Source: Octopus vulgaris (taxonomy: Eukaryota). Taken from it: DNA of 64,000 bases. The DNA is taken from the NCBI GenBank assembly GCA_951406725.2, contig OX597822.1, positions 19,344,001 through 19,408,000 on the forward strand, in the 5' to 3' direction. Shown here one piece after another: positions 9,734 through 51,125 of the stretch (positions are counted from its first letter, which is position 1; every line of letters starts with the position of its first letter). The translations under genes and the position numbers were made by a program. Below the pieces are notes generated by a model. The model did not search any database. It saw nothing but the letters and a program-made list of their open reading frames with translations, and was not told where the DNA came from.

Positions 9734-9878
9734 GATTCCATGCTACTTCAAGTTGTGAGGGCCCAAACGGAGCCTTTCTCATTAGGCTGGTAATAATCTC
9801 TGACGGATTATTACCAGCCTGATGAGAAAGGCTCCATTACAGCCAAGAGCTTTCAAAACTCGAAGTAGCATGGAATCC
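9734..9878. repeat. Fold-back element whose two arms are decayed hammerhead motifs
   Basis: Outer arms gattccatgctacttc/gaagtagcatggaatc; inner arms ggagcctttctcattaggctggtaataatc/gattattaccagcctgatgagaaaggctcc. Right arm reads ccagc-CTGATGA-gaaaggctc...gagctttc-aAAAC-tcgaa-GTA-gcatgg. Confidence 0.75.
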
Positions 9879-15452: not shown

Positions 15453-16676
15453 CAGGGTGCGGTGAATAAATTGTCATCTAAATTATGCAAAAATGAAAAC
15501 ACTGACATCTCATTTTAACATATTTACCAAAATTACATAAAAATATCTTGAAATACTAAAGAGTAAATTTATTCAATAAAATCACCATTGGTTTCAACCA
15601 TGGCCTCCAGACGACTTCAGAATCTCTTTCAACTCTTCTGGGCAGTCTCCTTGTTTAAGTTGGTGAATGCTGCCATAATTCTTGCCTTCAGTTCATCTTT
15701 GGTGTTACAAAGAATTTTGTTGGTCTCTCGCCCAACTGCACCCCACACAATAATCAAGGGAGTTGCAGTCTGGGGAGTTAGAGGTGATGTGGTCACAGAA
15801 ATTGTCTGACAGCCATAACTGTGGCTTATGTAGCATGATGCAGAGTCCTGTTGCCAGACATAAGGTCTTCCAGTAGCCACCCTCTTGACCCAGGACAACA
15901 CTACCTCCTCCAGACACTTGATGTAGGCTTCTGTGTTGAATGTGAGGCCATGTGGAAGATGAATGAATGCATAATGTCACCATCATGAGTGATCGCTTCA
16001 AACACAATGATGTTGACTGGACGTTTGATTTTTATCACTTTTGGTACATGTTTTGGGGACATGGCAAGCCAATGGTTGTTCTGTGTTCTCCATCTGATCC
16101 TGGCAGAAATTTTTCTCATCGAAGAAAAACCTAAGAATGTTCACTTGGAAGGGATGCTTGAGTTATTTCCAAAGCTTCGTAGTGCACTCTTTCCTCTTGT
16201 CCTTGATGGCTTGGGATAAAAATTGGCCCTTTCTCATCTTGTATGAGGAATACCAAATGTCTTTATGCCCGACCTGCCTTATAAGAAACTCAGACACTCC
16301 CATGCCCCTAGTGATGGATCTGATTGACTTGGAGGGATCATTGTCAATCATGACCTGGATCTCACCAACAAATTAAGGAGTACTTTTCTTATCAGACTGA
16401 CTGATCAAAGTGAGTTTTCCAAGCTACTGTACCTTCGTAATCACTATTAGACTCATTCAAATCCTCTGCATTGTTCTCAGATTGACACTCAAACACTCTG
16501 AAATGTTCATATTGGAGCTTCTGGTGTGAATGCGAAGTAGTACAGCATATCATTGCATCATGGTGCTGTTTTTCTCACAGACAGTGCCCAGCTGACCCTA
16601 CTATACTGTGTAGTTGACAAAATCAAAACAATGTGCATGTGCGAAATTAAAAATATAATTTACTCATCACACCATG
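15453..16676 (-). mobile_element. Full-length inactive Tc1/mariner-superfamily transposon, probably maT (DD37D) type
   Basis: TA flanks, ends CAGGGTG / CACCATG; fragments GRPYVWQQDSA, SNSPDCNSLDYCV, WGAVGRETNK...ELKARI. The SPDxNPLDY form is maT-like; exact D-D spacing is obscured by deletions. Confidence 0.8.
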
Positions 16677-16744
16677 TATATATAATCTGTTCTGTGATGG
16701 TAAGATCAACAAAAAAATAATACTCCATCTGGTGGGAGATAAAT

Positions 16745-17097
16745 ATTATTTAATAGACACAATACATGTTTTTATGTGCTACTAATAGTTTCATATGTTG
16801 AGAAATACCTCAAACATATAATCATCAGGCACAAACCATATATAATGAAAGGCAGTCAATTGGTGGCAGCTGAAACCAAATGAGAAAGGGAGATAATCAC
16901 ATGACTCAAAAGTTTGATATACCATAAAGAAAAACACAGTCTGATTGAAGACAAGAGGCCTGCTGTAGTCACATGTAGATTACTGAAACCTAGTTTATTA
17001 TGATATGTGATTTGTGCCTGATGAATATGTTTGACATATTTCTCAATTTATGTAACTATTAGTAGCACATAAAAACATGTATTGTGTCTATTAGATA

Positions 17098-17100
<3 letters not shown>
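16745..17100. repeat. Inverted repeat with about 90 bp arms (16745-16835 and 17011-17100); third direct copy at 17754-17845
   Basis: taatagacacaatacatgtttttatgtgctactaatagtt is the reverse complement of aactattagtagcacataaaaacatgtattgtgtctatta. Confidence 0.9.
16775..16833 (-). ncRNA. Minimal type I hammerhead ribozyme motif, left arm of an inverted repeat
   Basis: Minus strand reads TGTGC-CTGATGA-tt-ATATGTTTGAG gtattt CTCAACATAT-GAAAC-tatta-GTA-GCACA: 5-bp stem I, long stem II, intact core, 2 extra nt before stem II. Confidence 0.65.
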
Positions 17101-17149
<49 letters not shown>

Positions 17150-17158
<9 letters not shown>

Positions 17159-17754
17159 TGGAGTTTAATGCAGGTGTAATTCAAATACTGTTACTTCCGA
17201 CACATGTTTTGAAGATATCACTAATATTATTTGAAAGGAATAAAATGGTGTAAAACAATGTAATCTTCTCTTCAGGGAAGTGAAGAAATGAAACTCGTCA
17301 ATAAGATATTTTAACAGAAAATGATGGATATGTATAGTGATTTACTGACTGCTATTAATATTGTTTGAAAAAACGTTTTATGATATAACGTCAGAAGTAG
17401 CCTATAGAAAGAGGAGGGATAAATTAAGGAAAAGTTAAATAAATAAGAAATATATGACTATATGTATATTAAATAAAACCTGATAAACTAGGAAAATATA
17501 TATTTTTTTAGTGAATGTTAAATATAAAAAGAAAATTTATGTTTAAATTATAATGATAGAGATTACTTATATGAACTAAAGGTGTGTTTTTGCCAATGTT
17601 TACATCGGTATGCAATCTCTATAATCGTGTTTACTAGGATTTTTAGAAAAAATAATGAAAAATAGTTCAGAATTACAGAGAAGACAGAATTCCTTGCCTT
17701 TGTCATAAGGTATCGAGATTGAGAGAATCAACCATTCTAAATTAAATTGTTCAT
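17150..17754 (-). mobile_element. Penelope-like retroelement 3' remnant (end of the GIY-YIG region plus 3' terminal repeat)
   Basis: Minus peptide FNLEWLILSISIPYDKGKEFCLLCNSELFFIIFS fits the W.Il....pY.....C.LC..E...I motif ending many Penelope-like ORFs. A hammerhead motif follows on the same strand. Confidence 0.65.
17193..17281 (-). ncRNA. Hammerhead ribozyme motif with one core substitution, downstream of a Penelope-like ORF remnant
   Basis: Minus strand reads ACTTCC-CTGAAGA-GAAGAT...ATCTTC-aAAAC-atgt-GTC-GGAAGT. Perfect 6-bp stems I and II; GAAA to AAAA at a former CpG. Confidence 0.7.
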
Positions 17755-20541
17755 TGTGCCTGATGAATATATTTGACATATTTCTCAATTTACATAACTA
17801 TTAGTAGCACATAAAAACATGTATTGTGTCTATTAGACAATATGTATGTGTGTTTGTGTGTATGTATATACAGAAAACAGTTGAAGGAATACCAGAATTA
17901 AAAAATAAATACTGGGGTCAATTTGTTCAGCTAAACCCTTCAAGGCAGTGCCCCAGCATGACCACATTCCAGTGACTGAAACATGTTACAGATAAAAAAA
18001 AAACATATGAGATCTTCAGGGTTTGTGTGTCTAGGAGTTTGATGTGACTTGGAGGAGTTAGTGCCACACATTCAGATCAGGTTTTTGAATAACTTGGTAA
18101 CTCTTACTAGTTTCAGACATCCTTCCAATTAAGTCATTAAAATAAACTTGTTTAATTGGTCCTGGCTGTTGATACAAACACTTGGAAATAATTATGTTCT
18201 CAGAATTACATTGCCCAAGTTTTCATTCTTCATCAGAATTACATTCTGTAAATCTCTTGTTATAAAGACAGGTTTCCATGTTGCTTATCTCAACTTCCTC
18301 CTCTGTTCTCAGAGGGACACTAGATATAATCCTTCCTCAGCAAAATCTCAAGCAGTCTTAAAAAAAAAACTTTTGAAATTCAAATATTCATTTCACAGAT
18401 TTATCATTATATCTTTTGTGATCATGACTTAATGAGTTTTGTGAGAGATATAGAGAATTGAGGATTTTGATTTTTTTTTTATATGTTACACTTCTGGGTG
18501 ACTTTGATTCCTCTTTTACTCAAATGGACCACAATAGCCATTTGAAGTTTCAAATATCCTATTATATTTTTAGAATTAAATATTAGGAATTGCATGAAAA
18601 ACAGTTGGTGTATTTGTCATCATCATTTAACGTCCATTTTTCCATGCTGGCATGGGTTGGATGGTTTGATAGGAGCTGAACAGCTGAAGGACTGTTCGGG
18701 CTCCCAGTCTGTTTTGGCATGGTTTCTACTGCTGGATGCCCTTCCTAATGCCAACCAGTTTACAGAGTGTACTGGGTGCTTTTATGTAGCACTGGCACAA
18801 GTGCTTTTTATGTGGCACCAGCACCTACTCTGGAAGTATAACCAATTTATTGCATATAAATTGTAACATCAAAATCTTATGTGTACCTCCAAGGGCCATA
18901 TGGACCCCGGTTGAGAACCACAGATTTAGATGGAGATCATTTGTTGTAGTACTATTTGAAAATAGAGCTCAGTTTTCATTGCATGCTTTTCAGTGACTCT
19001 CATATTTTGGTTCTTTGGAGAAGAAGGGGATCGTTTAGAATTCTATAAAAAAAAATCCGTATCTCAATAGATAAAAGAAAGTATTTTTATGGTTATACTG
19101 ACTTAAAAGCCACTTGATAGGGCAGCTTTTAAGCTAGCTCTTGTGGAGGGCTCTTCATTAGGCCTTGGGCCCAACAATGACACTTCATGCATTGAGTACA
19201 TATTAAATTTTATTAAACTTCAACTATATTTTTCAAGCAATGAACAATTTTCATCAAAGCAATGATATACTTTGTCAACATGGAACTTATTGCAAATTGC
19301 ATGATAACAGTATTACCACCACCAGTGCCACCACATCTGCCATATACACACCATTCAGATACCACCACCAATACCTTTGACTTCGCTGCCTTCCCCTCCA
19401 TCACCACTGTCTTTCATATCCCTTACACTCACTGCCTCTATCACAATTACAGCTCATACTTTTACTATCACTCCATTACCATCACAAAAAGGCTAAATGT
19501 TCAGTATGTTACTTGAACATATTAGTTCAGTGGTCAGTCCCTCTTTTGCCCACATACCCACTCTTTCCCTCTCTTATTATTACTCCCACTGCCACCATCA
19601 ACACTACCACTTTTAATAAAAACATTATCAACTCTCCCTAAATTTCTTTGTCTCTCTTTCTCTTCCTCTCTTTTTATCTCTCTCTGTCTTCACCACCACC
19701 CTCACCGTCTCTATGCTTACTATTACTCTCACCTCAATATGAGCAATAGTAGGAGTGTCAATGAATAGTGTGAGAGGGGGTCGAAGTGTGACACACTGAC
19801 ACACAGATATTAGTTTTCGCATTTATTATATTAGATGGTATTATATGACAACAGTCATCATCAGTCTCTTAATGTCCAGTTTTCCATGCTTGTGTGGGTT
19901 GGCTGGAATTTGAGGCAGAAATTCTTTGGCTGGGTGCTTTTCCTGTCACCAACCCTTGCTGGTTTCAAAGCAAGGTAATATTTCCCCGTGGCCACACACA
20001 TTCTTGCAGAATGTTGAAAATTACTGACACGGTTTTTATTATAGTAACATCCATTTGCAATTATCATACAATGTCAAGACAAGAAGACACAAGCATGCAT
20101 ACTTACACACACACATATATGATGAGCTTCTTTCAGTTTCAGTATATCAAATCTATTCACGTGGCTTTGGTTGGCCCATGGTTGTTGTAGCAGTCACTTT
20201 CCAAAGTGTGCTTAACCACACCACCATATCTGTACCATTATTATTATTAAGGTGGTGAATTAGAAGAATTGTTAGCACACTGGGTAAAATGAATAGCGGC
20301 ATTTTGTCTGTCTTTATGTTCTGAGTTCAAATTTTGCTAAGGTTGACTTTGCCCTTCATCCTTTCAGGGTTGATAAATTAAGTACCCCCCCTCTAGTTTT
20401 CAGTCTTTGTGCCTTTAGTAGAAAGGATTATTATTGTGTTAATGACTCAACAATACTATGTGTATATTATAAACATCTTTTGTGTATATTACTATAATAT
20501 TTCTATCTTTTTTAGGTTCAGAAACTAACAGAGTTTCTAAC

Positions 20542-50708: not shown

Positions 50709-51125
50709 TAAAGAAAAAAGGTTGGTCATTCGCCAAAAATTCTTATAAAAACTTATGATTTCTGATGAATTTTTGACAAAGCAATACATGCTTTCTCCTA
50801 TCAAATACTGTCTACGAATTCTTTCTGTATAAACAGTTATGATTTCTGATGAACTAATAAACAATTATGAACTTATTTTATTGCCTATTTTGAACACTTT
50901 TATGTAAACTGTTTAAACACAAAGCTTCTCTTAACATTTTCTTATCATTGTCAAAGACTCTATCACTGTATTTTAATACATCTATGTTAACTCATTGTTA
51001 ACGCCACAAAGTCTACACAAAGCCTTACACTTTACTTTTGAAAAATCTGTTTTAAAAAGATGTGAAACTGGTCAAGTCAATAAATATCTTTAAAAGACTT
51101 CTGCATTTTCAAATCCTCTTCCCTA

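Follow-up and report, generated by a model that had tools for sequence, protein, structure and literature searches.

How did three copies of one hammerhead-bearing unit, one inverted and two in direct orientation, come to surround a remnant of a Penelope-like element (PLE) in an octopus genome? The locus lies in a stretch of 64,000 nt from Octopus vulgaris (assembly GCA_951406725.2, contig OX597822.1, forward-strand positions 19,344,001 to 19,408,000), hereafter the window, whose first letter is position 1 of all coordinates given without a locus name. The genome searched comprises 2.8 Gb in 227 contigs and is AT-rich. The original prediction offered two origins for the repeats: tandem terminal repeats, or a 90-bp duplication created when a second element inserted into a first. 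The locus probably consists of the truncated ends of two PLE families of the Hydra clade, here called family 1 and family 2, and about 115 bases of the first were likely duplicated when the second inserted. The result is nested transposon debris of a known type, with one uncommon scar. Published work is cited below from excerpts of the papers.

Layout of the locus

The following parts were distinguished; pLTR stands for pseudo-long terminal repeat and UTR for untranslated region.

16686..16744, minus strand: family-1 tail, an extension of about 60 nt past the pLTR end that stops at a short TA run; on arm A only
16745..16846, minus strand: copy A, family-1 3' end (pLTR), with a type I hammerhead at 16775-16833, CUGAUGA/GAAA core intact, GUA site
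16847..16991, no strand: spacer between the inverted arms; non-family DNA, an old low-copy repeat
16992..17104, plus strand: copy B, family-1 3' end without tail; hammerhead remnant at 17013-17069, GAAA changed to GTAA, stem II damaged
about 17105-17148, no strand: (TA)n tract, the end of B and the attachment point of the family-2 3' end
17150..17758, minus strand: family-2 copy of the older subfamily, 5'-truncated; endonuclease C-terminus, 3' UTR and pLTR
17193..17281, minus strand: family-2 type I hammerhead; stem II is long and G12 is replaced by A
17578..17758, minus strand: endonuclease C-terminal remnant, W..Y..CxLC..E and then CxH; frameshift near 17640
17754..17758 and 17012-17016, no strand: 5-nt microhomology TTGTG, present both where family 2 is truncated and where the duplicated target starts
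17754..17870, plus strand: copy C, duplicated locally from 17012-17128, which comprises B and the first part of the microsatellite; remnant of a hammerhead at 17755-17811, GAAA changed to ATAA

Copies A and B form inverted arms of 77 nt with 92% identity (16743-16819 and 17025-17101), and A and C form inverted arms of 81 nt with 86% identity. B and C are a direct repeat of 117 nt with 90% identity (17012-17128 and 17754-17870, spacing 742). The one minus and two plus copies named by the original prediction are thus present, as are the (TA)n tract, the unrelated hammerhead and the same-strand peptide between B and C. The unit measures about 100-117 bp and not 90 bp, and copy A continues leftward for about 60 nt as family tail, to ~16686.

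Family 1, the source of copies A, B and C

The family-1 unit has 1606 candidate places in the genome, of which the best 40 were scored, and one exact 21-mer of it occurs 250 times. A broken endonuclease (EN) with CxC-x5-C linker, CxLC and C-x-H motifs lies upstream of the longer copies. The unit is present at 23 of 25 loci holding this EN, one of them being the query's own locus, and several of these loci contain reverse transcriptase (RT) pieces matching an RT-EN protein with RVT_1. Marks of the Hydra clade were recognized as a CxCX5C linker and a CxxC/CxH EN end in many copies, and as pieces of the DKS, RT4 and YxDD regions in three loci (L128-L130). No intact family-1 open reading frame (ORF) was found among 150 scored matches; the longest open frame, with stops, has 311 aa. 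Eight family-1 EN matches with identical scores are located on one contig (G000:C28:6662810-9960373), likely a segmental or tandem amplification of a dead copy.

Copy A differs from the majority of 31 other copies, a set chosen by likeness to A, by 0 substitutions and a 2-nt insertion. Both halves of the hammerhead core are kept in A and in 18 of these 31 copies, and the letters of stem III equal those given for Penelope-1_HM (PMC8557442). Copies A, B and C are pLTR ends of what is apparently an older, dead Hydra-clade family. The two families meet at another locus too, where a family-2 tail stands beside a family-1 remnant (L127:2511-2604).

Family 2, the source of 17150-17758

The segment 17137-17758 matches 39 other places at 86-95% DNA identity (best 40 scored of 5350 candidates). 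The window copy is 5'-truncated, because most of the 29 fetched copies run past 17758 into coding sequence. A short element with a fixed end at 17758 was ruled out on the same observation, the query leaving the family at that point. A TA-rich run adjoins the 3' end of most other copies.

The protein search yielded 19,096 candidates, of which the best 150 were scored. Three fetched copies (L086, L087, L088) hold an uninterrupted RT-EN ORF of 775 aa, and a fourth has one stop. The full-length unit measures about 3.0 kb from pLTR to pLTR. A pLTR of 147 bp stands at both ends and bears the hammerhead, in keeping with the expectation that full-length relatives carry the motif; it is present at the 3' end of the family-2 copies. 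The segment 17150-17758 has 82-87% DNA identity to an ORF-intact copy.

The minus strand encodes the peptide WLILSISIPYDKGKEFCLLCNSELFFII (frame 17603-17758). Over 40 aa it shares 95% identity with residues 711-750 (from Met) of a full-length family-2 ORF. A tblastn comparison with the family-2 ORF recovered residues 743-771 at 69% in another frame, beyond the frameshift near 17640. These matches support the assignment of the peptide to the EN C-terminus of a PLE, as had been proposed from its sequence.

The family-2 protein contains DKT, a Hydra-type RT4 region and GLYRDD. Its EN end has CLLC before a conserved E and C-K-H after an N, and no CCHH. The position of the RWK motif reads RWL. A CxCX5C linker was not found: family 2 has no cysteines at the linker columns, where three database relatives (P0001-P0003) have them. 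These relatives possess all Hydra motifs and are 25-28% identical in the EN region; P0002 and P0003 align over most of the length at 28-30% identity, and P0003 has RVT_1. Pfam gave nothing meaningful for five family-2 proteins and no GIY-YIG or RT match for the window peptide, and a PDB sequence search with the family-2 alignment returned 0 matches. Atlas neighbours were found at 0.95-0.96, with GIY-YIG in 11% of the members of one set. By its motifs, family 2 would be a variant member of the Hydra clade, not a textbook one, as the linker cysteines are absent. The CxCX5C linker is the proposed partner of (TA)n targeting, yet family-2 copies without it (L086:3371-5695, minus strand) end in (TA)n.

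Both families were compared by eye with the consensus sequences and the alignment of the published Hydra families. They appear to lie outside those tabulated in PMC8557442; the supplements of a recent preprint could list related ones (10.64898/2026.07.22.740005).

Copy C as a local duplicate of copy B

Copies B and C have six substitutions in common, each of which occurs in 0-1 of the 31 other copies and none in A. A diagnostic 21-mer spanning five of these changes occurs genome-wide only at B and C, and no family-1 subfamily of the B/C type was found by this exact match. Because the private changes are common to both, C was copied locally from B, which had by then decayed. The two differ at 4 of 84 sites. 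Between the family-2 insert and its 8 nearest copies, 17 of 603 sites (2.8%) differ, from which 4.7 differences between B and C are expected; comparison with the majority of all 29 copies gives 6.4. The two ages agree, which favours duplication at insertion.

The boundaries of the duplication coincide with those of the insert. It starts exactly at the family-2 5' truncation point, on TTGTG, and its other end lies in the TA tract to which the family-2 3' end is joined. Family-2 copies read TTGTG and then the ORF, while the window switches there to the family-1 unit. According to a rough hand estimate, at least five matching bases arise by chance about once per hundred junctions. Such a geometry would be expected of a target-site duplication in which the second strand was cut or invaded about 115 bp from the first nick. 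The timing of the duplication relative to the family-2 insertion is inferred. With the 21-mer confined to B and C and the ages matching, a duplication during the insertion of the second element fits best among the origins first offered.

A long target duplication is not the normal mode of family 2. Four other insertions initially scored as candidates were rejected: the sequences at L099 and L029 are separate and diverged members of a common repeat and fail to adjoin both junctions, and L019 and L025 had scored on TA runs alone. The literature search found no paper on long target duplications by PLEs or on these two families; most subscription papers as well as Repbase and Dfam lay outside it.

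Arms A and B and the foreign spacer

The tail of about 60 nt also follows the unit in most other family-1 copies. An inverted pair is present at 4 of 27 other family-1 loci (L033, L038, L043, L055), with the tail on exactly one arm in all four. Family 2 shows both orientations at 18 of 35 loci, 13 of which have clearly one long and one short end. Inverted pLTRs with a one-sided tail have already been described (PMC8557442, PMC3846280), and two internal RT start sites explain the tail (PMC11167929).

The spacer has two other genomic matches only, at 75-76% (L062:1484-1601 and L063:1500-1580), and no hammerhead was found in these two loci. Its overlap with family-1 loci is 0 of 170 bases, while the inter-arm DNA is family DNA in 4 of 4 other pairs. 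That the spacer derives from family 1 or from another hammerhead element was rejected on these grounds. The junction of spacer and B is not an assembly artefact, because a contig from another sequencing run (X7) spans 16859-17079 with one differing letter and two gaps.

By a hand estimate, an independent neighbour within 200 bp is unlikely, given about a thousand copies in 2.8 Gb. For this reason, and since DNA capture between pLTRs has been described, A and B are preferably read as one event with captured or later inserted DNA, over separate insertions. The description of unrelated DNA between pLTRs comes from Adineta Pen2a and Pen3a (PMC3846280). The private changes of B fall mostly in two clusters (17025-17052). 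Each cluster makes a short palindrome or inverted repeat perfect, a pattern expected of template-switch mutations.

Hammerhead motifs

A descriptor for type I hammerheads that tolerated a single change in GAAA was run along the two strands of the window. The scan gave four matches: copy A (intact), copy B (GTAA), 17193-17281 (AAAA) and a weak one at 50762. Copy C escaped it, with two changes in that half of the core (ATAA). In copy A the core is complete, stem II is long, stem III is minimal, and the GUA site is present. Rfam reported no hammerhead at E ≤ 1 in the whole window; its 49 matches were microsatellite-like or weak matches to other families. Folding z-scores were -3.79 for A (0 of 200 shuffles), -1.46 for B, -0.85 for C and -0.18 for 17190-17284, so that A alone outdid its shuffled versions. 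What identifies the motifs is their core sequence and family context rather than folding energy, and their assignment is to be read as putative.

In the older family-2 subfamily the core is intact in most of 32 rows; G12 is kept in 29, replaced by A in 2 and missing in 1. The G12 to A change in the window is private, probably CpG-type decay, and the motif is likely inactive. One stem I pair changes from C-G to U-A between the family-2 subfamilies, and 96% of cells pair. Covariation support for the family-2 hammerhead is weak, because the 13 rows used are related and were hand-picked.

The core is intact in A and mutated in B, in C and in the family-2 motif. The hammerheads attributed to the copies are real as motifs, with one core of four intact. 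There is no sign of function: three of four cores are broken, the change common to B and C precedes the duplication, and the composite is single-copy. The term compound ribozyme locus does not apply in a functional sense. The motifs are predicted to be passengers of element ends that do nothing here; self-cleavage would still be possible for A alone, provided that it is transcribed. In vitro, mutating the hammerhead left insertion by a Poseidon element unimpaired (PMC11167929).

The youngest ORF-intact family-2 subfamily (e.g. L086:5934-6032, minus strand) carries a fixed U4-to-C change in the core with the stems still paired. CCGAAGA is present in 34 of 53 rows and has 500 exact genomic matches, versus 427 for CTGA[A/G]GA in an identical context. 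U4C is described as reducing in vitro cleavage considerably while still permitting viroid infectivity (PMC3088659). The subfamily is a natural test of whether PLEs need their ribozyme.

Proposed origin and alternatives

Two steps are proposed. In the first, family 1 would have left a two-armed insertion, A with and B without the tail, around 145 bp of foreign DNA. The family identity of both arms is plain, and a single event would account for them. B would then have gathered about six substitutions, one of them breaking its hammerhead core. In the second step, whose structure is likewise directly legible, the mechanism may have been as follows. The family-2 EN would have nicked the (TA)n tract after B, and the family-2 RT would have copied its RNA from the 3' end by target-primed reverse transcription, stopping after about 610 nt. 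The cDNA end may have annealed via TTGTG to the opposite target strand about 115 bp away, and fill-in would have made C.

Several points weigh against this account. The spacer is foreign, unlike the inter-arm DNA of the four other pairs. B has six substitutions from the family majority and A none, with comparison copies picked by likeness to A; A and B may be two separate insertions. A similar asymmetry between arms, 5 versus 12, exists at L055. The age test is low-powered at 84 sites. An abutting long flank duplication was found in 0 of 29 older and 0 of 35 further, mostly young, family-2 insertions; the survey of the latter detected its positive control. Parts of the stretch occur in 20 of 24 listed public runs, with no RNA run listed among these; no empty allele was seen in contigs of four public runs (88% likeness), which were swamped by other repeat copies and among which no listed piece spans the locus. 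Pfam does not recognize the EN, nor Rfam the hammerhead motifs. The putative GIY-YIG label comes from motif comparison and the Atlas lead. The best fold of A is a rod that buries the hammerhead core.

The strongest alternative, itself unlikely, keeps both families and lets C arise by a repair-type duplication, a microhomology-mediated template switch or a tandem duplication, separate from yet near the family-2 insertion. The lack of long flank duplications at 64 of 64 other family-2 insertions speaks for it, and microsatellite-rich DNA is prone to rearrangement. Against it, the duplication starts exactly at the truncation point with microhomology to element sequence, ends at the TA attachment tract and matches the insert in age.

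Tandem terminal repeats, the other origin first suggested, would make B and C the tandem pLTRs of one family-1 transposition unit that captured an antisense family-2 fragment. The A-B-C layout of one inverted and two direct pLTRs does occur in Pen2a and Pen3a with captured DNA (PMC3846280). Here, B and C flank opposite-strand DNA of another family and have private mutations in common that are nearly or wholly absent from the 31 copies and from A, which argues that B decayed in place before it was duplicated. The ends of the family-2 fragment, TA at 3' and truncation at 5', resemble those of its own insertion, and no second copy of the composite was found among the best 40 scored candidates. 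This origin is accordingly very improbable. A functional multi-ribozyme element, in which B and C release a retrozyme-like 742-nt RNA circle or the cluster regulates a host transcript, is scarcely credible: two same-strand hammerhead remnants do lie 742 nt apart, and tandem type I hammerheads define animal non-LTR retrozymes (10.64898/2026.07.22.740005), but GAAA is missing from both cores, their common change is older than the duplication, neither copy stands out in the folding z-scores given above, and the composite is single-copy.

Under the favoured two-step origin, the locus has some bearing on the PLE cycle. Target duplications of PLEs are normally unreadable inside (TA)n; here one reaches unique sequence and marks the likely point of second-strand joining, a step that in vitro work has left open (PMC11167929). 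The two families add members to a thinly sampled clade, and one has intact ORFs that could be assayed. A wider idea, offered as a speculation with low prospects, is that Hydra-clade enzymes occasionally cut the second strand, or invade it, at a distance of over 100 bp from the initial nick, which would duplicate DNA adjacent to (TA)n. New DNA would come to be bracketed by two same-strand ribozymes, because (TA)n tracts already carry hammerhead-bearing ends of other families. This might be a recurring route to chimeric, circle-forming retrozyme precursors, here with both cores dead.

Other features of the window

To the left of the locus, ~15530-16660 holds a decayed high-copy repeat that resembles a Tc1/mariner transposase remnant. 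Contig depth is very high at 16564-16627 within this repeat, and a related piece flanks L012. A near-perfect palindrome of 67 nt at 9769-9835 scores as mir-39 on both strands, below the gathering score, and is likely a repeat-derived hairpin.

Comparison with known systems

Craig et al. (2021, PMC8557442) report hammerheads in the pLTRs of Hydra elements, (TA)n targeting, inverted arms and tails as well as a Hydra family from octopus, so that the tie between hammerheads and PLEs, put forward as an outcome of this locus, is already in print for the Hydra clade. The present families resemble that clade, including Hydra-1_Obim, in a single RT-EN ORF of less than 3 kb with DKT, Hydra-type RT4 and GLYRDD, and in an EN end without CCHH that is framed by CxxC and CxH. 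They also share the type I hammerhead in the pLTR with a minimal palindromic stem III, the insertion into (TA)n, and the inverted, 5'-truncated arms with a one-sided tail (PMC8557442). In contrast to Hydra-1_Obim, both have a different hammerhead and protein, as compared by eye. Family 2 further departs from the clade by RW-L in place of RWK and by the absence of the CxCX5C linker, while still inserting into (TA)n. Both hammerheads have a longer stem II than most Hydra motifs listed, and a target duplication of about 115 bp is not mentioned in the excerpts of that paper (PMC8557442).

Pen2a and Pen3a of Adineta vaga have inverted and direct pLTRs, an optional tail on one arm, a nested insertion in opposite orientation, microhomology at 5' junctions and foreign DNA between pLTRs (Arkhipova et al., 2013, PMC3846280). 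Their target-site duplications measure 8-10 bp. In the octopus locus the second direct copy represents a decayed target that was duplicated, and not a pLTR made by transposition. Animal non-LTR retrozymes likewise have same-strand repeated type I hammerheads related to PLE pLTRs (Li, Clavereau and Pollet, 2026, 10.64898/2026.07.22.740005). Unlike these, the octopus locus has no tandem unit, its cores are broken, it is single-copy, and the DNA between the hammerheads is the coding remnant of another family. A parallel to the scar itself is the long interspersed nuclear element ZfL2-2 in DT40 cells, for which one of 25 insertions had a long target duplication of 1228 bp, explained by a distant second-strand cut (PMC2666801). 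ZfL2-2 belongs to a different class of retroelement with a different endonuclease, and its case is experimental, whereas the present one is genomic. Set against these systems, the two families and one long junction duplication are new here; the rest of the biology is already published.

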